A stretch of 63,954 nucleotides of DNA, the filler included, from Craspedostauros australis (taxonomy: Eukaryota), in assembly GCA_030167865.1 (NCBI GenBank). It is 17 parts of 17 records of this genome, joined end to end, with 100 filler letters (N's around TTAATTAATTAA, not from the genome) between each part and the next. Parts side by side here need not be neighbours in the genome. Positions count along the whole stretch, not along the records: positions 35,489 to 39,943 come from JALAGF010002952.1; 16 more parts are not named here. One strand, 5' to 3'. The position numbers and the translations under genes are program-made. Below, piece by piece: positions 1 to 42,900 of the stretch. The notes below the pieces were generated by a model. The model searched no databases. It was given only the letters and a program-made list of their open reading frames with translations, and was not told the DNA's origin. Within the stretch, counting starts at the first letter, position 1. Each line of letters begins with the position of its first letter.

Positions 1-2517
1 TGCCTTGGCCAGTGCATGTACGTGGTCTATCACTGATTGTGGCATGGGGATCTCTGTCCAGCTGCGGCGATGAATGCAGCGTCCGGTAGTCAGGCTGTAG
101 AAGACGTAGCCACCTTGGATGTTGCCGGATGGTCGCAGAGCGATTGCTCCAACGGTGCGTGGTTGCATGGAGTTATCGTGCTGTTCATGTGTTTGCGCGT
201 AGCTGCCGAATTCGATTCTGCAGTGCGCGTTGTAATCGAGCTTTCTCCCGACCACAATTTCTGCTGGGCTCATGCGCTTTGATACGCCATCAGGATGTGG
301 GAACATATTCATCCAGTAGACTGAATGATACACCATTTCAATGATGAGCGATGGTGGGTACGCCTTGAATGGTAGAGCATGGTATGTAGATCGAGTGCGC
401 TCCTTGATTGTTCGAATATAGCGCTCGACTTCCGGCACGTGTTCATCACGAGAGGTCACGTTGATGCTCACACCAACCTCAGACATGTCACCACGGAGCG
501 AGCTGAACTGGTTGTCAGTCAGCATGATACCAACCCTGAACCCTCGTTGCTTGTACAGCTGGATGATGTTCCTGAACTGCTTCACGAGCGTTGCATTCGA
601 CTCGGAGTTGAGCTTGACGACGGTTCCGAACTTGAGGTGTTTGGATACGGACACCAGAAATGGAATACCGTTCACCTTCATGATATCCGCAGAGAGCACG
701 ACGTCACGATATTGCTGCATGATACTGGCTGGCAAATGTGCGATCTTTGCTCGGACGGCCGGGGGTACCTGCCTTGTTGTCTTTCCTTTGAGTGATGGTA
801 CATCCGGACCGAAGATGAGCTCGGCAGTGCGAATGTCCTTGGTTGTGATGGGACAGTTCGGTATCATCCCATTCTTCACGTACTTGATGTAGTTGCGCGT
901 GGTTGGATGTCCAATGCGCTTCTGAATAGATCTAGCAAGTTGGGCCTGCGAGTAGTCGTAAGTGGAGAAGCTATTTTTGTTATCTTCCACTGTAGTCACG
1001 AGAGCTACTTCGCTGGGGCTTGCCATGTTCAGGTAGTACAGTCCGCGTTGGGACTCGACGAAGGTCCGGGTTGATCCATCCGGCTTGTGTACCACAAAGC
1101 TGTTGGTACCACTGCTGTCATATGTGACGCGGAACATGGATTTCACGCGGCTGAGTGAGAGGATGTTGGCCACGCCGGATGGGTGGTACCACACTGCGCC
1201 ATATCCAGGGAGTGTACCCTTCTTGTTGGTGGTGGTGGTGCCAGCGTTGCAATGGATGGTCAGGGCGGTGTCAACATCATGGATGTCGCGGATGAGTTGT
1301 GCGTTGGAGAAGACGTCGACCGTGGATTGATTGTCCAGCAGAATCCAAGTGTTGGGAATAGGGCTGTGCTTGTTGTGATTGTGGTGGTTGGTGAGGAAAA
1401 CGAACTCATCTTCATCATCCCCCACAGTCGTCGCATGGACGAGGACAGTTCCATTTGCATGGTATTTGGCATGACACTGGTCGGTTGTGTGGTTGCTGCG
1501 ACCGCATCGCTCACACTTGGTGTCGTTTTCGTGTGTGTTCACGAATGCCATGCCTGAATCCTTTGGAGTGTTGTGACTTGGAAGATTCCTTGGATCCTTC
1601 GACCAGTGGTTCAGCATTGTGAACGCCTCCGCCATGGTCTTGGGGTATCGATCATCACCTTTGAGGTAGTCGTTCTGTAGTTCTTCGATGAGGGATCCGT
1701 ACCGGTGGCGATCTGCGCCGAGGATGAAAGCAACGGCAAGGAAGCGCTGCTTGGCATCCTTCCTGATCTCCTTTCGCTCTTCCTCGCTTGGGTCTTTGAG
1801 GTTACGCTCCTTGAGGACATGAAGGGCTGCGCTGGTCACCTCTGTGACATTGGTCATGAGTGTGTCGTTCACATCGACAAGATTGATGAAGGATTCGTAG
1901 TATTCTTGTGTGGTTTGTTTTCTCTTTTGTTGGAAGGTGAGAAGGTCCTTCATGATCATGTGTGCGGCGACCAAGTGGTGTTGGTGTGTTTGGAAATTGA
2001 AAACAACACTCTTTATCATCTTGATGAGGGTGATTGTGTCCATGCTGCTGTTGGCTGCAGAGTATTCTGTCATCTCTTGTAGGCGGCTTCGCATGATCTC
2101 TGAGCACTGGCCCCAGATCAGGGCGTACACCTTTTGGAGGTCCACCTCGGCGTTGGCAAGCCGGGTGGTGTAGAGGGCATACTTGCGCTTCCACTTTTCC
2201 TTCTGAATCTCGGTGGCGTTGCTCGGGTAGTCGGCTGGCTCGGGGATGGACGGCGGCTGGAGGTTTTCAATGGCGAGTGCGACGGCTGGTCCGTATTCCG
2301 ATCCGACGTACACCTTGACTGCATCGAGTGTGCGAGTGAATTCATCGACCTGCTTGGATCGGTTCGCTACACAGTCGAAAACGAATCCCTTCAGGCCAGA
2401 GCATGCTCCTTCGAACTTGGCTGGACGCACGAACGGTGGTCGATGTGGCTTGTTTGTTTTGTTGTTGCTGTCCGGCGCTGACTTTCTCGGCACAGCCGGC
2501 TTACTCTCGGTGCTCAT
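1..2517 (-). CDS. Copia gag-pol polyprotein, 3' partial (839 codons in window)
   Basis: Manual translation from ATG 2517 (MSTESKPAV...) is in the same frame at base 1. It is absent from the ORF track, consistent with no stop being reached. Motifs: gag LIWGQCSEIMRSRL and ELQNDYLKGDDRYPKT; knuckle CERCGRSNHTTDQC; protease WILLDNQSTVDVF; integrase SADIMKVNG...TDNQF...EHVPEVERYIRTIKER; GNIQGGYVFYSLTTGR. Confidence 0.92.
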   Translation of the reverse strand, partial: MSTESKPAVPRKSAPDSNNKTNKPHRPPFVRPAKFEGACSGLKGFVFDCVANRSKQVDEFTRTLDAVKVYVGSEYGPAVALAIENLQPPSIPEPADYPSNATEIQKEKWKRKYALYTTRLANAEVDLQKVYALIWGQCSEIMRSRLQEMTEYSAANSSMDTITLIKMIKSVVFNFQTHQHHLVAAHMIMKDLLTFQQKRKQTTQEYYESFINLVDVNDTLMTNVTEVTSAALHVLKERNLKDPSEEERKEIRKDAKQRFLAVAFILGADRHRYGSLIEELQNDYLKGDDRYPKTMAEAFTMLNHWSKDPRNLPSHNTPKDSGMAFVNTHENDTKCERCGRSNHTTDQCHAKYHANGTVLVHATTVGDDEDEFVFLTNHHNHNKHSPIPNTWILLDNQSTVDVFSNAQLIRDIHDVDTALTIHCNAGTTTTNKKGTLPGYGAVWYHPSGVANILSLSRVKSMFRVTYDSSGTNSFVVHKPDGSTRTFVESQRGLYYLNMASPSEVALVTTVEDNKNSFSTYDYSQAQLARSIQKRIGHPTTRNYIKYVKNGMIPNCPITTKDIRTAELIFGPDVPSLKGKTTRQVPPAVRAKIAHLPASIMQQYRDVVLSADIMKVNGIPFLVSVSKHLKFGTVVKLNSESNATLVKQFRNIIQLYKQRGFRVGIMLTDNQFSSLRGDMSEVGVSINVTSRDEHVPEVERYIRTIKERTRSTYHALPFKAYPPSLIIEMVYHSVYWMNMFPHPDGVSKRMSPAEIVVGRKLDYNAHCRIEFGSYAQTHEQHDNSMQPRTVGAIALRPSGNIQGGYVFYSLTTGRCIHRRSWTEIPMPQSVIDHVHALAKA

Positions 2518-2550
2518 CTTTGCTGATAGAGCAAAAATCAATTGTAACTA

Positions 2551-2840
2551 TGTTGTAACAACAGCGCTCTCGCCGGTCTCTACCCGGCTTTGAGCCGAAG
2601 GACAGTTCCAGACGATGTTACTGTGTGATTGTATGGGTGGTAAATCAGATAGTTACAATTGATTTTTATGGTGTTTGTTTGCTCTCTCTCTCTTTGTTGT
2701 TGTTTGCTGTTGCTGTGATCTTATCGCTGACTTGGCGCAGCGATTGTGTGGTCTCGGTTGGTTTTCCTTGCCTGGTCTGGTCTTCGTCGGGATGCTCCGA
2801 AACCACAGGTAGACCGGGAATGTAGGTGTCTTCCCCAACA
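2551..2840 (-). repeat. 5' LTR (290 bp) of the Copia element
   Basis: Minus strand starts TGTTGGGGAAG (2840) and ends ...GTTACAACA (2551), giving 5-bp terminal inverted repeats TGTTG/CAACA. It ends 33 nt before the gag ATG. The second LTR is not in the window, so boundaries are inferred. Confidence 0.75.
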
Positions 2841-3007
2841 AACACTCTGTTCTTTGGATCATCAATACGATCCTCGCTCTCTCTCTCTCTCGGGCAATAC
2901 GAGCATTCGTATAGTATTGCGAGCGAAGACGACCAGAGCGCCATCACATTCCTGCATCAAGCTCCATCAGACTCCATCTCGATTTCCCTTCTCCAATCAC
3001 CATCACC

Positions 3008-4965
3008 ATGGAAGCATCGGCCACGCACATGATGGACGACGATGTCATTCAGTTCATCGATGACGATGACGATGACGATGACGACGAGGATGTTGTTGAT
3101 TCCGGCGATGGGATTGCGTTCATAGAGGAGGCATCCCCTGACGAAGAGGCGCAGACAGGAACGGACGCGGAGAGCGGTGATGGGGCGATGGATGTTGTCA
3201 TGCAGAATACAGCTTCGTTGGGATCACAGGATGCCATGATCACTAGCAACCACGATGGAGGACATGGAGAAGGCGACGCTGCAACAAGCTTCGGCTCCAA
3301 CACGAACGGAGATGCAACTGCTGGCCCAGATACGGCTTCTGCGGATCCCAACGGCGAAGACTCAGGTGAACGGAGCACGTCGCCGGAGCACGAGCAACCA
3401 CAGGAGCAAGAGAACCACCAAGAGGATCACCAAGAGGATCACCAAGAGAATGAGCAAGGCAACGTCCGAAATCGATTGGAAGAAACGTCACCAGATGTGC
3501 TCAACATCGTCTTCTCCTACCTGTACCTCTACGAGTTGGAGGCCGTGTCATCGTTGTCCAACAATTTGCGCGATATCGCAACCCACTCCACCCATCTGTA
3601 CATGAGCCCGACTGCCCACCCCATCCACGAGGCGGAGTTCAACCAGCTGCTCGCGCGGTTCACCAAATTGAACGTCCTGCACCTGCAAGGCCTGGGTTCC
3701 ATCGGCGACGCCAGTATCCAGATGATCAACGACAGCGAATGCTGCAACAACCTCAAGGAATTATCGCTGCGCGGTTGCGTCTTCACGTACTGGTGCTCGC
3801 ACACGTTGCAGCTGCCCAGCTTGAAGACCCTGCGGCTGTGGGGCGGCGCGATGCGTGCTTCCATCGCTCGTATCGTGCATGGCTCCGCGGCGAGCCTGCG
3901 CGTGCTTTGCATGGAGCACTGCTCCGTCGTGTGTGACAAGACCCTCAACGAGCTCGTGCCGCTCGTGTGCGATACGTTGGAGAGTCTGCAGATGACGCAC
4001 TGCATCAAGCTGCAGGGGCCGGAGCTGCGATTCACCAACCTGCGGTGCCTGCGGTTGGTGGGCGGATTCGTGCTGACGGATCTGCCCAAGCTCAAATGTC
4101 CGCAGTTGGAACATCTGGATCTGTCGGTGTGCATACGTCTGTCGTCCAAGGCCGTGCAGCGCATCTTGTCGAATCTACCGGAATTGAAGACGCTCAAATT
4201 GATGAAGTGTTCCGGATTGGAGACGCTCAACATCCCGTGCAAGAAACTGGTGTCGGTGGATGTGTCGTACTGCGCTGCCTTGACCGTCCTCATGGTCAAC
4301 TCCGTGGTGTTGAAAAAGGTGTTGGTACGTACTGTTGCAGCATGGTGTGGTGTGGGTAAAGTGCGGTCTAGCATCTTGACGCAAGAATACAGTGCGGATG
4401 CGGAACTCTGCAAGTGCGCACACATAACAGACAGGTTGCGAGCACTGCCGCGACATATACAGCACGCTTGCTTGACGACATTCGCTCGCTCACACTTTGC
4501 TGAATGCTGCTTACATGATGCTGGATTGCGTTGCAACTGAACCATCTCCCTCCACAGACAAGCGGCTGCAGCGCCTTGGATACCTTGATGGTTCGCAACA
4601 CGACCACCATGCAGCATCTGAAATTGCTGTCGTTGGCTAAATTGCAGCGTCTGCGATTGGATGCTCCAGGTTTGCAGACCTTGACGATTCGGGGATGCAC
4701 CGAGTTATCGCACGTCCATCTATTCTGTCCTCATTTGCGGCAGGCCAACATGTCGTCCAAGGATACACGCACGCAAGAGCTGTACCAGTACGAGCCTATT
4801 CGGAGGCTCGTGAAAGAAGACGAGAATGATGTCGGTGGCAATGGCAACGATGATGACATTGGTGATGCTTCCGTGAATGAAATTGGGATGGATGCAGAAG
4901 AAGCCTCCAACCAACAGGACGGAATTAAAATACAGGTTGACGGCGTCGCAATGTCACAAGAGTAG
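3008..4965 (+). CDS. F-box/LRR protein (FBXL-like) with acidic N-terminus; predicted intron 4325-4557
   Basis: F-box-like LEETSPDVLNIVFSYLYLYELEAVSSLS followed by Cys-containing LRRs (LEHLDLSVCIRLSS, LKTLKLMKCSGLETL). A phase-0 GTACGT...CCACAG intron joins ORF 3008 to ORF 4531 in frame and continues the LRR pattern (LKKVL|TSGCSALDTL). Confidence 0.8.
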
Positions 4966-33733: not shown

Positions 33734-35388
33734 TTACAGCTTGCTCAACTGCGGCCGTCCTCCGTACTTGCGAATCAATTCTTGTTTCAGCACCTTGCCC
33801 GATGCCGTTTTGGGGATGGTTGGGACGAGAAACAAATATCGCGGCCGTTTGTACTTGGCCAGATGATGCTGCGTGCACAGTTGCTGAATGATGTTGAGAT
33901 TCATGTCGGCGCCGGTGGCAATGACGACAACACACGCCACGGCTTCTCCGAATCGTTCATCAATTCTGGGAAACACGGCACATTCCACAATTTCGGCATG
34001 CCGCAGCAGGATGCGTTCGACTTCGGAAGCAAAGACGGTCTCCCCACCTGTCCGGATCGTGTCCGTGCTGCGGCCACAAAAGTAGAAGGTGCCGTCATCG
34101 ACAAATCCCAAATCGGACGTGGTGAGGTATTCATTGGGATTGCGATCGAGCTGCGTCGGTGCATCGCGATCCCAATACCCATTCATCATCTGCGGTCCTG
34201 CGAAGGCGATCAAGCCGATGCGGTTGTCTGTTTTCTGAATTTTTAGTTGAACATGCGGTGGCGGTGTCCCAATGCAGTCGGCAAACGAGACAGCAGCAGA
34301 GGTACGCTGCAGATCCAAAAACGTCAACGACGACGCGGCTTCCGTGCAGGCGTAGGTTTGGAGGAACCGCGCGTTGGGGAGGATCTTCTGCTTGTACTGT
34401 TGGTGGAGCTTGTGCGGGATGGATTGGCCACCGATCAACACCAATCGGACGTGGGAGTATCGTGCTGTGGGACGTTGTTGATGTGCGTATGCCTGTGCCA
34501 TGGCCACCAGCATGGCCGGAACGACGACCAAGGTGTTGACGCAGTGCAATGCATCATCGGCATTTGTATCCTTCGACAAGCATTTCCAGACAAGCGGCGG
34601 ATTGAAAGATGCCGGCGATTGCTGCGCGTTCGTTGAGATTGTCGCTGTTGTTGTTGCTGCTGGATGCGCCGGCAATGCCAAACAACCACCAGCTAGCAGG
34701 ACCGCCAATGCGCTGCTGAGACCACCAATGTGAAAGAACGGCACAGTCGACGCGAGCAGAACCGTGTCCAGGGAGTACTCACAAGGAGAATGGCACTTGG
34801 CGTACGCCTGGACGAGCAGCGCCCGGTGGCTCAATCGCACTCCCTTTGGTTGGCCGGATGTTGTCCCTGATGTGAACACAATGATGGCATCCTTGCTCGC
34901 GAATGCGTCGCCGCTTCGCAGTTCTGTCAACGATGAACGTGACATTTTGTTAGCTTGCTTGGTGTCACTTTCATGATCGGATTGCGTTGTCAGCACAGGT
35001 CTGGACGATGCGGACAAGGATGGAAGATGCAGGCATTTGCACAGATGTTCGTTGCTGCTCGTGCCGCTTCTCTTGCTACCGTTGAGAATCTGAGACACCC
35101 TCTGCGCCGTTGCATGGAATTCACTGCTGTACAGAAGCAAGGTTCTGCACGTGACCGAGCCCTTTCCTGCTGCTCCTGCTGCCGCTGATGGTGCGAGCGC
35201 TCTGGCCATTTCCTGTGCCGTCCATCGCGTGTTCAGCATGACCGGCAACGCTGGAATTGCCCCGTCGTCTGCCGTGCAAGCCAGCACGGACATCAGCATG
35301 CTGAGCGAGTTGGAGGAGAGGTACGCCACGACGACGCTGTGACAACCGCCATCGGTGGCATCCGCAGCAAGTGATTCTTGCAGAAAGG
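33734..35388 (-). CDS. Peroxisomal acyl-activating enzyme, o-succinylbenzoate-CoA ligase (MenE/AAE14)-like, 5' partial
   Basis: AMP-binding FTSGTTSGQPKGVRLSH, PFFHIGGLSS, YACTEAASSLTF, TSDLG, GRSTDTIRTGGE, YKRPR...PKTASGKV; ends in PTS1 -SKL. Confidence 0.82.
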
Positions 35389-35488
35389 NNNNNNNNNNNN
35401 NNNNNNNNNNNNNNNNNNNNNNNNNNNNNNNNTTAATTAATTAANNNNNNNNNNNNNNNNNNNNNNNNNNNNNNNNNNNNNNNNNNNN

Positions 35489-36148
35489 CTGCAGAGGCTG
35501 TTCCCCAACGACAAGGTCATCGCCAGTCCACGAGCCAGCAAACTGACCGATCTTCTCATCAACGGTTCTGTGACGGGCATCCAGGCCTACACCACCACCG
35601 AGGTGCCGACCATCGAGCGCATGCTGCGCGATGATCCTGCTTTGGCAGGCAAGAAGCTGGAGGTGACAGTGTTGGAAGGTATGGCAAGTGGCAGTGCAGG
35701 TGGCGGCGTTGCTGGTGGAGCCACAAAGCTTGGATACGGTCAGATGGTGTTCACTGGCGACGAGTGCCTGAGCGGTGATGATGATCGACGCGATGTGGTG
35801 AAGGCGTTCTTGCAGGCCACGTTCGAAGGCTGGGAGCATGCCATCCGTCATCCTGAGCTTGCCGCCGAGCAGGTCCTCGAGGCTCAGAAGCGTTTGCTGG
35901 ATGTGAACAGCACGGCCGACGGCGAGCTCGGTGATGTGGATCACTGGTATCGTGGATCGTCGAACGAGACACAGCGCGAGTACGATGTGGAGATGACGCG
36001 TCTGTGCAACGATCAGGTGAAGGGCACGTTTCAGGCAGATCGATACGGAGTGATTGATGTTGATCGTTGGGACGAGGCGAATCGTTGGTTGCTCGGAGAT
36101 GGGTACAAGGGCGATAACTATGCCATCGATCCGGCCGTCTGGAAGTAG
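35489..36148 (+). CDS. Stand-alone/truncated NMT1/THI5-like domain (5' partial), inverted copy of the fusion gene's first domain
   Basis: 35489-36143 is the reverse complement of 39289-39943. It ends ...DPAVWK* where the other copy continues DPAVWTPPAQMLGG into FolD. Confidence 0.65.
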   Translation: MQRLFPNDKVIASPRASKLTDLLINGSVTGIQAYTTTEVPTIERMLRDDPALAGKKLEVTVLEGMASGSAGGGVAGGATKLGYGQMVFTGDECLSGDDDRRDVVKAFLQATFEGWEHAIRHPELAAEQVLEAQKRLLDVNSTADGELGDVDHWYRGSSNETQREYDVEMTRLCNDQVKGTFQADRYGVIDVDRWDEANRWLLGDGYKGDNYAIDPAVWK

Positions 36149-36643
36149 ATTTGCTGCATACCAAGGACATGAGGGAAGGCCAGCAGGCTGGCCAGTGTGC
36201 CTTCGCTCGAAGACTCCACTGTGCCGCAGCTGCCCTGGAGATGTTCTGCACTACACTTGGTATCATACGCACTCGTGCCATACATTTGTACCCCCAGAAA
36301 ACGTCTCCCCATAGCCGAAGACTGAGTGTGTGCATCCATCCTCGAACGATGTCGGAACAAAGTAACCAACCATCCAACGCTGAGCCATGCCGATAGACAG
36401 CGCAGAAGCGAGATAGCCATGCCCTCGAGAGAGAACCATTTCAATGAGCTTGACTCAATCGAGGAATACTCCATACTGATAGTGCTCTGAGGAAGGGTTC
36501 GCACCAAATCCACAGCCAGCCATAAATCTTATATAATGTTATATTAATATTTTAGTAGTATTCCTATCGATATCTGGTGCGTTGCTTGGGGTCGCTTGTC
36601 ACCCTACTAGTATTTATACGATGCCGCGGTCCAGCCGCCAACT

Positions 36644-39600
36644 CTACTTCGATTCTGGTTTGGAGAAGAGGCAAACGTCTCCGTACGAAAGGAATCGGTA
36701 TCCGTTCTCCTGGGCATCCTCGTAGATCTGGCGGATCTTGTTGCCCTTGGAGTCCTTCAGAAAGCCGGAGACCAACAGCATGAGCGTCGAGTCCGGAGCA
36801 TGGAAGTTCGTGACGAGGTTGTCCACAACTTGGAAGTCGTACATGGGTGGGAAGATCATCAGCGAGGTCTTTCCGCTAAGGACCTCCGCATCGTCCCGGC
36901 CCTCGATGAGCGCCTTCAGAGCAGTGACGCGGGAGATGGTACGCCCTTCGCCCACCAGCAGTGGGATCCATTCCATCTGGCCCACCTCGAGGCGGTGGTT
37001 GGCATCGATGCCACCGTCTGATCCCACGGCTTCGAGTCCGCGAATGCGCTTGACTCCACACCAGAAGAGGGACTCGAGGGTGCGGGTGGAGGTGGTGCCC
37101 ACGACAGTGAGAGACTTGCCAGCTTCGAGCGCCCCGATGATGTTTCGGATTTCTCTCACGGACACGCTGAAGACTTCGGCGTGCATCTCGTGGTCGCGTG
37201 CATCCTCGACAAGCACCGGCTTGAAGGTTCCTGCACCAACGTGCAACGACAGGTAGCTGCAGTTGTCAGAACCGATCTCGTCAAGAACTGGCTTGGTGAA
37301 ATGGAGTCCTGCTGTTGGTGCGGCGACTGAACCAGCCTCTACTGCGTAGAGGTTGTTGTATGCCTCTTTGTCGCTGTCTTCAGCGGCACGGTGGAGATAC
37401 GGTGGGATGGGCACAGATCCGGCAGACTTCAAGAAGTCCTCGATGGATGCATCGCTCTGAATGCGCACCCAGCACTCCAAACCGTTCCCATCGCTCTTCT
37501 CGTCCTCCAACCACTCTCTATACCAGGGTGATGTCGGAAGCACGAGGATGATGATGCGATCACAGTTGAGAGGATGACGACGGCGGAAGCAATTGGTCAG
37601 GCATAGAATGAATGACTGAATGGGATGGTTGCGGTGTTTTCGTTCGCAAGTAACATTACAACAACAACAGTAGCAGCAGCAGCAGCAACACCAGCAGAAT
37701 TAACAATCAGCGTGAACTCACCCAATCACTTCATCAATCACGACCTGTTGGTTGTCGCCGAGCTCGGTGAATGTTTGCCCAGCCTTGGCGGCGTCAGTGC
37801 GGATCATGGCACGGAGACGCGTCTCGGAGCACTTCGCGTCCACATCGACGTTTCCCAAATCGAGAATCATGAGCTCGGTCTTTTCAAGTCCGTTCCCGGA
37901 AACGAAGAGGCGAGCATCAAGCACCTTGCTGTCGTTGAAGACAAGATGAGAGCCTTCGATGAGAGATGCGAAAATGTCGGAGAAGTTGTTGTGGTAGGTG
38001 ACCTTGCCAGATCCATCCACGTGAAGCACCTTCGAGCTGCCCCTTGGAGAGGCTGGGTGCTTTGCGATGATATCCTCCTTCAAATCGTACGTGTAGTTCT
38101 TCATCTGAATTTGGTCAGCAGCCAGAAGCATGTCAACTGCCATCGTCGCATCGTAGTCCTTCTCGGTGAGACGACTCGCCTCCCAGGTGAAGAACTCCAG
38201 CTCCAGGTCCACCCCGTGCACACAGGCATGGTTGAACTTCATGTTGGCATGGTGGTCCATGATAGTGCTCATCTCATCCACCTTGCGAGCGGCCTCGAGG
38301 GCCTCCGAGTAGGTGTCGAAATGGTAAGTCTTGCGCAGCTTCTCTTGCTCGCACACCCACCCGTTGGACAACGCCGCGGTCTTCCCGCGACTCATCTGCG
38401 CCCACGCTGCCTTTGCGACATTGCGGAACAGCATGGGGGAGCTCAGCGGACCAATGCCACCTGGAACGGGGCTGAACTTGCATCCGCGTTTGGCAAGGTC
38501 GCCATCGACGTCGGAAACGAGCCGATCCAACTCTTCCACGAAGGTAGTTCCCACATTGATGACGGCGGCGTCCTTGGAGATCCATTCGGCTGGGATGAGC
38601 CCAGGTTCTCCGGCACAGCAGAGCACGACGTCGGCGTTCTCGACGTACGCCTTGGCGGTCGCTTCAGGAACCTTGGAGTGCAGGACGGTCACCGCTGCTC
38701 CCTTCTGACGGCACATGTGGGCCAGGGGAGAGCCGACGATGGGACTGCGTCCGATGACGACGACTCGTTTGCCTCCGAGCTCCACACCGTACTCCTCCAT
38801 GAGCGCGATGGCTCCAGCCGGGGTGACCGGCGGATGCGCGTCGTCATTCCCAATCTCGAGCTGCCCGACGTAGTGAATGCCATCGACGTCCTTCGCAACG
38901 TCGATCGCCGAGAACACCTTTGCCGAGTCGATATGTTCCGGCATCGGCCACATGAGCTGGATGCCATCGACCGAGTCGTCCTTTTGGAGCATGTACAGCT
39001 CACTGAGGAGGGACTCTGTGGTGGTGGTAGCCCCGTCCATGTTGATTTCGGTGACATCGAAGTTGTTGGCACGCCCGACCTCGGACTTGGCAAACCAGCT
39101 GCGCGATGCGTCGCTGTAAATCTCGAGTCGGCGCGTTCCGTGGGCGTAGCGTTTGAGTTCACCGACAGTCACGACGGCGAGTGAAGGGCGACGGCCGTAC
39201 GTCTGTTCGAAGTGCACAGCGGAAGACTTGGCCTCGCCCAGCAGGCGATGGGCCAGCTGGTTGCCACCGAGCATCTGCGCTGGTGGTGTCCAGACGGCCG
39301 GATCGATGGCATAGTTATCGCCCTTGTACCCATCTCCGAGCAACCAACGATTCGCCTCGTCCCAACGATCAACATCAATCACTCCGTATCGATCTGCCTG
39401 AAACGTGCCCTTCACCTGATCGTTGCACAGACGCGTCATCTCCACATCGTACTCGCGCTGTGTCTCGTTCGACGATCCACGATACCAGTGATCCACATCA
39501 CCGAGCTCGCCGTCGGCCGTGCTGTTCACATCCAGCAAACGCTTCTGAGCCTCGAGGACCTGCTCGGCGGCAAGCTCAGGATGACGGATGGCATGCTCCC

Positions 39601-39943
39601 AGCCTTCGAACGTGGCCTGCAAGAACGCCTTCACCACATCGCGTCGATCATCATCACCGCTCAGGCACTCGTCGCCAGTGAACACCATCTGACCGTATCC
39701 AAGCTTTGTGGCTCCACCAGCAACGCCGCCACCTGCACTGCCACTTGCCATACCTTCCAACACTGTCACCTCCAGCTTCTTGCCTGCCAAAGCAGGATCA
39801 TCGCGCAGCATGCGCTCGATGGTCGGCACCTCGGTGGTGGTGTAGGCCTGGATGCCCGTCACAGAACCGTTGATGAGAAGATCGGTCAGTTTGCTGGCTC
39901 GTGGACTGGCGATGACCTTGTCGTTGGGGAACAGCCTCTGCAG
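36644..39943 (-). CDS. queA: Fusion protein NMT1/THI5-like + FolD-like + pterin-4a-carbinolamine dehydratase + QueA; 5' partial (at least 1031 aa); intron 37518-37721
   Basis: THI5-like GIQAYTTTEVP and VKAFLQATFEGWEHAIRHPE. FolD KDVDG, VVVIGRSPIVGSP, PVPGGIGP (about 39274-38400). PCD LRKTYHF...MDHHA...LTEKD (about 38375-38120). QueA from 38104: LVFNDSKVLDARL, PIPPYL, GSVAAPTAGLHFT, LHVGAGTFKPV, VGTTSTRTLES, TNFHAPDSTL, YRFLSYGD. A GG|GTGAGT...TAG|A intron restores the frame inside QueA. Confidence 0.9.
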
Positions 39944-42900
39944 NNNNNNNNNNNNNNNNNNNNNNNNNNNNNNNNNNNNNNNNNNNNTTAATTAATTAAN
40001 NNNNNNNNNNNNNNNNNNNNNNNNNNNNNNNNNNNNNNNNNNNGGAACGGAAAAGGTAAGAAAAGTGAAGATTTCTGATTGGTCGACGGGTGTCGCTATT
40101 GTTAGAGATTTAGCGTGCGCTAATATGAAAGATGAATTCTGATTACACCGGACTTACTTGCCAGCAGTACAGTGCCAGATGAGATTTGTGATGATGTGAG
40201 GGATGTGATTAGAATTTTGGATTAGTATTAGGATTGCATGCATGGGATGATTGGGATAATTGTGAGCAATCAAATCATTTTGGGAATGATTGATTTTGAT
40301 TGTGTGAAAAAATAACACGTGTGACTGTGTAATATCGTGTAACAATGAAAGTGTGAAATAAAGATGGAAATGAGAGCAAAGCAACACATTTCCGTGTTGT
40401 TTGGAAGTTGGGAGAATCGATGTTGGCGATAATCCCATCCTAGCCCAGACCAGAAGCCCAGAGATGAGAATCACGACCAAACGCGCTTCTTGATGATGGT
40501 GCCAAATTGGATGCCTTTCTGCTTGCATCAGATGATTTGTTCTTGATTCATCATGGATGTTTGCGAAGAGGTATGAATGTATGCAGAATCTGCTGTGATG
40601 AGTGTAGACGTACGATTCATTCCGATGGTGAGATCTTGATACGATTGGATTTGTTGATGTGTTTGTTCGTTTTCGTCTGTCGTGGGAGAAGCGGTAAATT
40701 ATCAGTTGTGGAGGAAATGCTTTCAGGAGCACACCTGCTGCACATTGATCGATGATGTCGCATGTATGTCGTGGAGTGGATTGGATGCAGATTGGACAAA
40801 CGGTTCGAATCATGGTTATACTAGGTGAAATATAGCTGTGTGCTGATAATCGATGTGGATTTTCTCCATGGCTTCGGAATATAGCTGCAGGTAGGTGGTC
40901 TGCATGGCCACAAATGCTGCCATCGCCTGTTGCCTGTAGTTGGCCCATGGCCCATCAATGGCGGACAAGTTGAATGGAAGGATGCTCAGTGGACTTGTGC
41001 TAGATTGTGTGCTGAGCTGTCTGCCTTTGTCTTGCTGTCGTTCAGATGTGATGGTAGGACCAGGATTGGGCTGGGTGGGAGGGTTGGCATCTTGAAAGGC
41101 ACCAGCGCTCATCCAGGGGATGCTGTTGATCAGGGCATCGACACTCGAGGTGGCATCAGCATTGGCATTACCATTTACGCCACCAGCAGCACCAGAAACT
41201 GCAGCATCCGTGCCCGCGCCCTCCATTCTGTAGGAATCAAAGACGGCCTCCCACTGTTCATACATCTGCGTCATGTTGGGTGACAGCATCAACTCCATCT
41301 TTTGACCGATGAAGTCGAACTCATCGTGAAATTGCGCCTCCATCATCGGTATCACCGTCGTTGGAAGTTTTGTGAAGGATGATGGCAACAGCATCGCTGT
41401 GTCATCCGACGCCTCCTTGTTATCACTGTCGGCCTGATTGTTGTCTTGGGTCTGGCCTCCTTTGGTTGACCACATGTCAGCGTTTCTCTGTGTGCCAAGA
41501 TCACTGCTGTGCTTGAACAGTATCCAACGTTGCATTCCAATAGAGCGATGCTGGAGTACTCGTACACCAGTGTACTCTTTGTTGTTGTTTTGGAAGATCT
41601 TTGGTGCCCCCTCTGGTGTGTGAGTTGACCAGAATGGAATGATGAGGGCGCCTCCAATCAAACCCAATGGAACCCAATGGAACCCAATTGCACTTCTTGA
41701 CGTGTACGTACTGATAGCTCGTCTGGTATGGCACTTTGGCGCAAAACAATGGAACATGACATGCTTTTAATGCGGCATGAGGCAGGACATGTATGTATGA
41801 GCCAGAAGGTTCTCTCTCCAGACAGTACTTGTGATGGCACCACATGCTGTTCTCGTGCTCGTATTTGTGATTGTGATTGTGATTGCCAGGTGGCGAAACA
41901 CACCAACTGCAGAGACGATGGGGCGCAACGACCACCAACCTCGATCCCATTCGTGGAGAACTCCACTGTGAGGAAGCCAAGAGAACAAAACGCGACAGAG
42001 AGGCCAAAAGCAGAATCTGATCGCAGAGCAAATCTGTGTGCCTTGTTGGAGGCAAAAGTGGAGGCACAGTAGTATTGAATCCTGTTTGACATTTTCAGTC
42101 GCGCATCGGCTTCCTGGAAGGAGGTCAGACGTTCGCATGCACATAGAGTTGATAGTCTCGCACGGACGATAGTGGGACTCCCTAATGAATTTCATCAAAA
42201 GGGTCCAATTTGTCACTGCTGATACCCTCTGTGCAGTTTCTTGTTTTGCATGGGCGAAAACTGACCATCGTCAACACAATTCTGTTAGCGTGGGAATCGA
42301 ATCAAGACTACCCATCATGATCGCCAACTGCAGGAAGGCCAAGATGCACTTTTTGGATATACAGCATGCTCTTGTCAAGCCATAATAACTGATGTATGTC
42401 ACAGGACTCAAGCATCTGCCTGTGTCAATGTTGTATTCCTCATCCAAGACCAATTGTATGTCTGCAATGTCAAACAGAGATCTTCCAAGACCCCTGGTCT
42501 TGGCATGAGTGGACAGGTGTGGAAAAGCGCATGTGTGGGTGATGTAATGCATGAACCAACGTGTCAAAACAGGCACAATCGACCATCTGAACATCTCAAA
42601 GTTATGTGGGTTTGCACGGGGAGAAACTCGTACAAAATCGCCATTCACACTGCTCATCCTGCTCCCATTCACTCAGATGGTCCATCAGTAATCATAAATT
42701 CACAAAACTTTCACATTACAACCAAATACTTTCACAAAACAAACAAATCTCCTTTCAGCCTATGTTCCCTTTTGTACGCCCCGACGTCACACGACTTTGT
42801 TCAAGTCGGTCCGGGTTGCAACTTTGATTCCTTGCACAAGACAAGAAGAAAACAATATCACAACGACTCCCTTTGACCACACTCAATCAAGAACAACTTC

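Follow-up and report, generated by a model that had tools for sequence, protein, structure and literature searches.

A conserved four-domain gene of diatom-like algae joins QueA to ThiY/Thi5-like, FolD-like and pterin dehydratase-like domains

We analysed a 63,954-nt stretch of DNA from Craspedostauros australis (hereafter the window), whose minus strand carries, from position 39943 to 36644, a gene encoding in this order a ThiY/Thi5 (NMT1)-like domain truncated at its 5′ end, a FolD-like domain, a pterin dehydratase (PCD)-like domain and the queuosine synthesis enzyme QueA. It places a known enzyme, QueA, in a fusion with an uncharacterised subfamily of FolD that is widely conserved yet undescribed. 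The explanation that we favour as a whole, with a probability of about 0.7, is a nuclear four-domain gene with an active QueA, whose product would be imported into an organelle and whose N-terminal part would form a pterin-type module. No paper on the fusion was found, in agreement with an earlier note on this DNA, whose author knew of no such description; the supplements of PMC12301720 and PMC9544697 may list diatom QueA or NMT1 homologues. Public databases do contain relatives of the protein, annotated automatically as, for example, "methylenetetrahydrofolate dehydrogenase..." or "4a-hydroxytetrahydrobiopterin dehydratase".

The gene model followed from two minus-strand frames, one open from 39943 to a TGA at 37720–37718 and the other open from 37699 to a TAG stop codon at 36646–36644. 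The in-frame TGA falls within a GT-AG intron that splits QueA (Table 1), and the splice product reads ..VIG/EWLEDEK.. across the junction. Both the stop-free frame through the four domains and the intron had been described in the earlier note, and both proved correct at the positions given there. The spliced product consists of 1030 residues, of which residues 1–1026 matched residues 164–1149 of a relative, P0144, in one BLASTP high-scoring segment pair at 53.6% identity. P0144 (1159 aa) is uninterrupted, holds all four domains in one open reading frame (ORF) and is collinear with the spliced product, and the site and phase of the intron were identical in four related loci (L002, L003, L004 and L009). 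About 162 N-terminal residues are missing from the window gene, as judged by tblastn alignments with P0144 and P0005 that begin at residues 163 and 149, respectively; the missing 5′ ~162 codons were not found elsewhere in the 63,954-nt window.

The same architecture recurred in many other sequences. When 8000 candidates were scored in a search with the exon-1 protein, 159 of them had E ≤ 0.001. Among the 120 listed of these matches, 27 contained FolD, PCD and QueA (13 of these also PF09084), 19 contained FolD and PCD without QueA, three were PCD-QueA or QueA pieces, and 71 had FolD, either accompanied by NMT1 or lacking it, and ended in nine ordinary proteins of 284–326 aa. Many relatives of ~850 aa stop at ..V(K/I)G, precisely at the position where exon 1 of the window gene ends, with exon-2 pieces present on contigs of equal size; proteins of this kind are what prokaryote-style gene calling yields at a conserved intron. 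Scanning of metagenome contigs yielded 47 loci encoding relatives, and an uninterrupted ORF of 1142–1246 aa extended over all four domains in 17 of the 47, two of them inside contigs of 24.8 and 29.9 kb. The neighbours of the relatives were typical nuclear genes (RING finger, TPR/MLP1, GDA1/CD39, GH38 mannosidase and FG-GAP), and queuosine, folate or pterin genes, QueH included, were not found beside the relatives in the related loci. Named diatoms with relatives included Odontella aurita, Skeletonema dohrnii, Eucampia antarctica, Cyclotella meneghiniana, Thalassiosira gravida and Fragilariopsis cylindrus.

An exhaustive HMMER search with the FolD-like and PCD part extended the comparison to 12,370 representatives at E ≤ 0.001, with 333 at E ≤ 1e-30. 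By Pfam, QueA was present in six of the 19 long representatives (P0282, P0287, P0292, P0294, P0295 and P0302), while eight contained FolD and PCD without QueA and five NMT1 and FolD only. P0294, with the four-domain architecture, comes from the chlorarachniophyte Lotharella globosa; P0287 and P0292 are transcripts from MMETSP, a transcriptome project; and P0547 (1549 aa) and its shorter form P0295 come from the dinoflagellate Polarella glacialis. The search of diatom and MMETSP data that the earlier note had proposed thus found the architecture, including MMETSP-labelled complete four-domain ORFs of 1179 and 1237 aa. Shorter products, with the two domains NMT1-FolD or the three domains NMT1-FolD-PCD, proved equally real, each having a stop and a 3′ end of its own. 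The domain order with QueA was common to diatoms, Lotharella and Polarella at 31–40% identity, and by this comparison the fused state is evidently old and common to diatoms, a chlorarachniophyte and a dinoflagellate. The four-domain architecture proposed in the earlier note is therefore real and conserved, recurring in diatom-like sequences, Lotharella and Polarella. The note's further claim of a eukaryotic nuclear gene rather than contamination was likewise upheld by the conserved intron site, by the nuclear-type neighbours of the relatives and by the identities of the QueA domain, which reached 45% with the best of 28 prokaryotic QueA loci compared to 72% with the best eukaryote-like match. 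On these comparisons the gene is assigned to the nucleus of a diatom-like alga and not to a bacterial contaminant.

The assignment of the C-terminal domain to QueA relied on profiles and solved structures. In the profile PF02547 (Queuosine_synth; cut-off 25 bits), exon 1 covered positions 2–86 with 59.3 bits and exon 2 scored 207.7 bits, and P0144 spanned positions 2–321 of 322, placing the domain in QueA at the domain level. Exon 2 matched the solved bacterial enzymes 1YY3 (2.5e-41) and 1VKY (2.1e-39), the range over 1YY3, 1VKY and 1WDI being 2.5e-41 to 4.2e-36, and it kept the blocks AAPTAGLHFT, LHVGxGTFxPV, GTTSxRTLE, TNFHxPxSTL and YRFxSYGD. The domain thus resembles bacterial QueA (tRNA preQ1(34) S-adenosylmethionine ribosyltransferase-isomerase; TIGR00113, PF02547; 1YY3, 1VKY, 1WDI) in the full-length match of both lobes and in the conserved blocks, and differs from it in being split by an intron, in forming the C-terminal domain of a ~1190-residue protein, in carrying ~60 extra residues and in scoring just below the queA equivalog cut-offs. 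The NCBIfam equivalog cut-offs are curated for functional equivalence in prokaryotes, and we attribute the narrow miss to the insertions. The shorter Polarella form P0295 likewise scored below them (300.5 bits for NF001140 and 265.3 for TIGR00113), and the intron-split QueA of the window, scored as exon 2 alone, gave 221.5 bits in NCBIfam.

QueA was widespread in diatom-like sequences, and in some diatoms it stood alone, in a protein of ~460 aa that begins with a basic extension of its own. A QueA tree of 33 hand-picked rows was built from 10 of the 17 full-ORF loci, seven bacterial sequences (eight tried of the 28 loci) and 16 proteins; with its arbitrary root and several weak inner forks it supports only the nesting of the stand-alone diatom QueAs. 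Its diatom clade (18 rows, support 100/100) contained 12 fused and six stand-alone forms, the latter in four places. Since fusions are present beyond the diatoms as well, the change more likely ran from the fused gene towards fission than the other way. A stand-alone QueA and a three-domain NMT1-FolD-PCD protein were both located on 10107-nt contigs in one case (P0273 and P0137, both beginning MIRF...) and on 7013-nt contigs in another (P0583 and P0136), and these pairs may be neighbour genes left by fission of the fused gene.

The FolD-like domain belonged to its fold family by Pfam profile and by match to solved structures and departed from ordinary FolD at the active site. It matched the Pfam families THF_DHG_CYH (PF00763, 1.7e-14, 54.5 bits, cut-off 32.8) and THF_DHG_CYH_C (PF02882, 5.9e-40, 136.6 bits, cut-off 27), and PDB FolDs matched it down to 1.7e-40. 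Among the 25 listed of 34 matched NCBIfam models, it scored 130–172 bits compared to FolD cut-offs of 333–559, with a best score of 172.1 against a cut-off of 423. Alignment with ordinary FolDs showed SWFxK in place of Y(V/I)xxK, preceded by a 16-residue insertion, and QLMWPxP in place of (I/L)VQLPLP, substituting Ser for Tyr and Met for Gln, while KDVDG, GRSxIVG, HS and PVPGGIGP were kept. Tyr and Gln were replaced in every family member examined, and the Lys of SWFxK is present in the window. The two site patterns were mutually exclusive among the 150 best representatives: the xxMWPxP site occurred in 29 (25 with SWFxK, 0 with VQLPLP), VQ(L/M)P(L/M)P occurred in 75 (68 with YxxxK, 0 with SWFxK), and the remaining 46, which were fragments or variants, matched neither.

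According to passages of a paper on Pseudomonas FolD (PMC3338484), the Tyr packs on the substrate, the Lys serves as the cyclohydrolase acid/base, the Gln positions the Lys and an Asp holds the pterin head, all four residues being strictly conserved in orthologues. Compared to bifunctional FolD, the window domain shares the two-lobe fold family, the NADP-binding motifs, the KDVDG Asp and usually the Lys, and it differs in SWFxK for YxxxK, in QLMWPxP for VQLPLP and in scores under half of every listed equivalog cut-off. The domain was never found as a stand-alone protein of ~285 aa among the family members examined. We infer that it is a neofunctionalised paralogue that would still bind NADP(H) and a pterin-like ring, and not a housekeeping dehydrogenase/cyclohydrolase. 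Present annotation pipelines name this subfamily ordinary FolD or PCD.

The PCD/DCoH-like domain scored 36.1 bits with PF01329 (Pterin_4a) against a cut-off of 26 and belongs to that profile. The PDB entry 2EBB, a solved PCD, matched at 7.6e-4 with the His-His pair aligned, and the pair was invariant in our alignments A1 and A3. The likeness to known PCD/DCoH proteins thus consists of a Pfam match above the cut-off and of the His-His pair aligned with solved PCDs, in contrast to an Ala (diatoms) instead of Pro after the pair and a 5-residue insertion. The catalytic signature of PCDs is reportedly His-His-Pro followed by a third His/Trp; at the position of this third, reportedly catalytic His, the window has Trp and the relatives have Tyr or Thr.

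The window fragment of the N-terminal domain scored 17.4 bits with Pfam NMT1 (PF09084), below the cut-off of 20.5, whereas the relatives passed it with 22–80 bits; the domain confirmation by hidden Markov model that the earlier note had proposed therefore succeeded for THF_DHG_CYH, Pterin_4a and Queuosine_synth and failed for NMT1 in the window itself. A sequence-feature (Atlas) search also indicated the NMT1 family. The AlphaFold model of the corresponding domain of a relative, P0155, had a predicted local distance difference test score (pLDDT) of 91.4 and a predicted template modelling score (pTM) of 0.88, and Foldseek matched it to 3IX1 (ThiY; E 1.1e-16, template modelling (TM) score 0.71), 4NMY (TM 0.73) and Thi5 (TM 0.67), which bears out the THI5/ThiY-like fold named in the earlier note. 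In this model the domain has a class II binding-protein fold of the ThiY/Thi5 group. The fold is shared with ThiY bound to FAMP (3IX1), the thiamin-binding substrate-binding protein 4NMY and the Thi5/NMT1 HMP-P synthase (4ESX/4H6D), all class II periplasmic binding proteins at TM 0.67–0.73; in contrast to these, the window domain is intracellular and fused, with an identity of only 11–17%. Descriptions in parts of PMC9544697 set it apart from the secreted diatom NMT1-domain proteins studied there, which have signal peptides and no FolD part; the same parts report that a Phaeodactylum tricornutum knockout of an NMT1-domain gene had no thiamine phenotype.

In Polarella, P0547 has the order NMT1-FolD-PCD-QueA followed by the epoxyqueuosine reductase QueH (PF02677, 8.7e-57). 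This protein, named "4a-hydroxytetrahydrobiopterin dehydratase" in UniRef, shares with the window gene the order NMT1, FolD-like, PCD and QueA as well as the motifs SWFxK and QLMWPxP; it differs by the extra C-terminal QueH, by only 38–39% identity over the FolD-like/PCD part and by its origin in gene models from an annotation pipeline. Joins of QueA to QueH recurred in three separate short contigs (P0426, P0429 and P0482). A search with the QueH part showed eukaryotic QueH to be common, with diatom examples from Skeletonema menzelii (P0510), Chaetoceros debilis (P0530) and a Bacillariaceae metagenome-assembled genome (P0536). QueH and tRNA-guanine transglycosylase (TGT) were not present in the 63,954-nt window. 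These findings link the module, in three distant algal groups, to the two final steps of queuosine synthesis.

The N-termini of the relatives pointed to an organelle. In 17 full-length relatives, 35–63 residues precede the conserved QLDYY start; these extensions are Ser/Thr-rich and have no signal peptide, and their first 40 residues contain 5–10 Arg plus Lys, 0–4 Asp plus Glu and no hydrophobic run longer than 6. The extensions resemble a mitochondrial presequence, and not the signal peptide that import into diatom plastids needs. With moderate support from these features, the four-domain protein is predicted to be imported into an organelle, most likely the mitochondrion. According to passages of PMC12301720, published in 2025, Chloropicon and red algae encode nuclear bacterial-like TGT (BL-TGT), QueA and QueG proteins targeted to the mitochondrion, and its authors describe this as the first evidence for such a mitochondrial pathway. 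The N-termini of the window family agree with the mitochondrial prediction given there for Chloropicon QueA. That set and ours have in common a eukaryotic nuclear bacterial-type late queuosine pathway with predicted organellar targeting, and differ in that QueA is stand-alone and accompanied by cobalamin QueG in the former, as far as those passages describe it, and fused to three domains in a lineage with QueH in the latter. The word "diatom" occurs in one unrelated passage of the main text of PMC12301720, and its "QueA" passages mention no fusion. Together with the wide occurrence of QueA in diatom-like sequences, the Chloropicon and red-algal enzymes speak against the view, repeated in the earlier note, that eukaryotes normally lack QueA.

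In the explanation that we favour, the QueA domain is, with good support from the conserved blocks and profiles, probably active and would convert S-adenosylmethionine and preQ1-tRNA(GUN) to epoxyqueuosine-tRNA, which a separate QueH would then convert to queuosine. With these two steps the alga would run a bacterial-type late queuosine pathway. The three N-terminal domains, in what is the weakest step of the argument, would form one conserved module that uses NADP(H) to handle a 2-amino-4-oxo-pyrimidine heterocycle (of pterin, folate or 7-deazaguanine type). Of the features of true FolD, the FolD-like domain retains the NADP site, the Asp that anchors the pterin and in most cases the Lys, but not the Tyr and Gln. 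Our best guess at its role is pterin/folate redox recycling coupled to queuosine synthesis, in which PCD would be the dehydratase and the FolD-like domain an NADPH-dependent reductase. A more specific and distinctly speculative version, which we consider doubtful, makes the trio a self-contained unit that serves queuosine synthesis alone by recycling tetrahydropterin (or tetrahydrofolate): PCD would dehydrate a 4a-hydroxy-pterin, the FolD paralogue would be an NADPH-dependent quinonoid-dihydropterin reductase and the binding domain would hold the pterin, whereupon the reduced pterin would give QueH its two electrons for the deoxygenation of epoxyqueuosine or gate the pathway in another way.

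Several observations weigh against this explanation. The gene lies on a small unplaced piece of the assembly that carries an unexplained inverted repeat, and one spliced mRNA is shown for relatives only. For QueA, P0144 scored below the equivalog cut-offs (282.3 versus 324 for NF001140 and 259.4 versus 267.45 for TIGR00113), and the extra ~60 residues lie between GTTSxRTLE and the C-terminal block. In the FolD-like domain, the Lys of SWFxK is replaced by Met in P0292. The localisation is based on crude composition counts, and the N-termini of the diatom QueH proteins P0510, P0530 and P0536 are acidic and not presequence-like, an awkward finding for a pathway confined to mitochondria; the late queuosine steps may be spread over more than one compartment. 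Fusion by itself is no proof that the domains act in one pathway. The covalent link is dispensable, as the stand-alone QueA of several diatoms shows, and true two- and three-domain genes without QueA exist. Finally, P0066 (677 aa, NMT1-FolD, labelled "complete" in MMETSP) is 100% identical to the first 677 residues of P0602, a 1168-aa four-domain form from a Thalassiosira-like source, and stops just past ..ATLR; the two appear to be products of one gene, so that the halves can also be made separately. At the FolD/PCD boundary, an intron may be retained or the 3′ end may be formed at an alternative site.

One alternative regards the FolD-like and PCD domains as normal enzymes of one-carbon and pterin metabolism in an organelle, with no chemical link to queuosine, brought together with QueA as neighbour genes with the same targeting or by a loose theme of organellar translation, in which formyl-Met-tRNA and wobble-U modifications need folates. 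We regard this alternative as unlikely, although it must be given real weight. It is consistent with the FolD families being matched above the Pfam thresholds, with the retention of GRSxIVG, HS, PVPGGIGP, the KDVDG Asp and mostly the Lys, with the detachability of QueA, whose stand-alone forms are nested among fused ones, with the pairs of stand-alone QueA and three-domain protein on the 7013- and 10107-nt contigs, which suggest neighbour genes, and with the two- and three-domain proteins that have no QueA. However, ordinary enzymes would hardly miss the NCBIfam FolD cut-offs by more than half among the 25 models listed of the 34 matched, nor would they replace in every member examined the Tyr and Gln that passages of PMC3338484 describe as strictly conserved in orthologues. 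Preservation of the domain order with QueA in diatoms, Lotharella and Polarella at 31–40% identity, with QueH added, is also unlike chance adjacency.

Two further alternatives give the N-terminal module a direct part in the chemistry of the base, and both have only a small chance of being correct. One is a supply of precursor, in which the FolD-like domain would be an NADPH-dependent analogue of QueF (preQ0 to preQ1), the ThiY-like domain would hold the base and the product would feed the protein's own QueA via TGT. The retained NADP site and the Asp that anchors the 2-amino-4-oxo-pyrimidine ring, the loss of folate-specific residues and the link to QueA and QueH agree with this idea only indirectly, as does the structural consideration that the one-carbon unit on N5 of folate would be placed like the C7 substituent of 7-deazaguanine. 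It is improbable in that PCD would have no role, modules without QueA exist, and no counterpart of the catalytic Cys of QueF was identified. Still less credible is the proposal of the earlier note that the ThiY-like domain captures preQ1 and that FolD-like/PCD forms a B12-independent epoxyqueuosine reductase in place of QueG/QueH. The N-terminal fold is indeed nearest to aminopyrimidine binders (ThiY with FAMP, 4NMY with thiamin, and Thi5), the pocket of the FolD-like domain has been remodelled and the module is fused to QueA, but the substitution is contradicted by the diatoms' own B12-independent QueH (P0510, P0530 and P0536), by QueH lying C-terminal to the same module in one Polarella protein and by the many proteins that carry the module without QueA. 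A false fusion by chimeric assembly or bacterial contamination can practically be dismissed. The 4.45-kb unplaced piece and its exact terminal inverted repeat, with the inner edge at the NMT1/FolD junction, would favour such an artefact, yet the junction and the architecture recur in dozens of independent sequences, the intron is common to relatives and prokaryotic QueAs are at most 45% identical; for the gene itself these points refute it.

Queuosine in eukaryotes is usually taught as salvage only. With QueA in the fusion and QueH elsewhere in the genome, diatoms, which are major primary producers of the ocean, join the few eukaryotes that encode the bacterial-type late steps and could therefore use preQ1-type precursors from seawater bacteria. 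The fusion is also a "Rosetta stone", in that PCD and a remodelled FolD paralogue are joined to QueA in three distant algal groups, and additionally to QueH in a dinoflagellate. Passages of a 2015 review (PMC4425180) state that the relationship between queuine and tetrahydrobiopterin, for which they cite Rakovich et al. 2011, needs further evaluation and that pteridines inhibit tRNA-guanine transglycosylase. The fusion offers a concrete, tractable protein for this link, long noted without a mechanism, and if the doubtful dedicated recycling unit were true, one polypeptide would be the missing link behind the coupling of queuine status and tetrahydrobiopterin oxidation in animals.

Table 1. Features of the four-domain gene, its assembly piece and the adjoining part of the window.
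Feature	Position	Strand	Remarks
ThiY/Thi5 (NMT1)-like domain, C-terminal ~two thirds, native copy	39289–39943	−	5′ ~162 codons and N-terminal extension lost at the end of the piece
FolD-like domain	38402–39268	−	catalytic-type and NAD(P)-binding lobes; motifs SWFxK, QLMWPxP
PCD/DCoH-like domain	38132–38374	−	His-His pair kept (DHHAN); Pterin_4a PF01329 7e-9
QueA N-terminal part, end of exon 1	37722–38101	−	PF02547 4.5e-16; PDB 1VKY 9.6e-5
Intron	37518–37721	−	GT 37721–37720, AG 37519–37518; 204 nt; phase 2 in Gly codon
QueA C-terminal part, exon 2	36644–37517	−	PF02547 3.2e-61; ends with TAG 36646–36644
Inverted duplicate of NMT1-like segment	35489–36148	+	frame ends ..AVWK-stop just beyond the repeat edge at 36143
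Joiner N44-TTAATTAATTAA-N44	39944–40043		closes the assembly piece of the gene; twin at 35389–35488
16 identical artificial joiners N44-TTAATTAATTAA-N44	17703–62915		stops in all six frames
AMP-binding gene (acyl/aryl-CoA ligase-type)	33734–35388	−	Pfam AMP-binding 1.6e-36, AMP-binding_C 1.9e-14

The window is a pseudo-molecule of 17 assembly pieces of mostly decreasing length, in which adjacency across a joiner is meaningless, and the four-domain gene is contained on a single unplaced piece of 4455 nt (35489–39943). A repeat search showed that the 655 nt at 39289–39943 are the exact reverse complement of 35489–36143, placing the NMT1-like segment twice on the piece; with the joiners counted, the arms of the inverted repeat measure 755 nt at 100% complementarity. 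The inner edge of the repeat coincides with the boundary between the NMT1 and FolD domains. On the minus strand the copy reads ..AVW/TPPAQMLGGNQLA.. on into the FolD-like domain, and the relatives read ..DVW/QPPKNLLPGNNLA.. at the same junction, ..AVW/TPPAQ.. corresponding to ..DVW/QPPKN... Because the homologues share this junction, the minus-strand NMT1-like copy has the native junction and the plus-strand copy is the odd one; a false join of NMT1 to FolD, in which the protein would really begin with the Met at 39274, was ruled out by the same conservation. The plus-strand copy could have arisen by fold-back of the assembly or by recent inverted duplication; it lies outside the functional gene model, which is independent of the origin of the repeat. 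A minus-strand NMT1 copy downstream of the gene was observed in none of the 47 related loci.

Several minor observations concern the relatives and the surroundings of the gene. P0155 (327 aa) ends at the same Trp as the repeat edge, the single such case among the proteins examined; a 327-aa ORF of similar length in L035 proved to be an unrelated protein. The AMP-binding gene belongs to a different assembly piece, whose end truncates it at the 5′ side, and therefore does not adjoin the four-domain gene. In L017 (2640–2712), an in-frame TAA separates the PCD and QueA parts (..QIRMI-stop-FTYDLNVESIARYPAEPR..) and could be a sequencing error, a polymorphism or a site of read-through. L001 contains at 1–162, upstream of a full gene copy at 1908–4145, a second partial match to the FolD-like end and PCD start (residues 629–691 of P0144), which may be a tandem duplicate.

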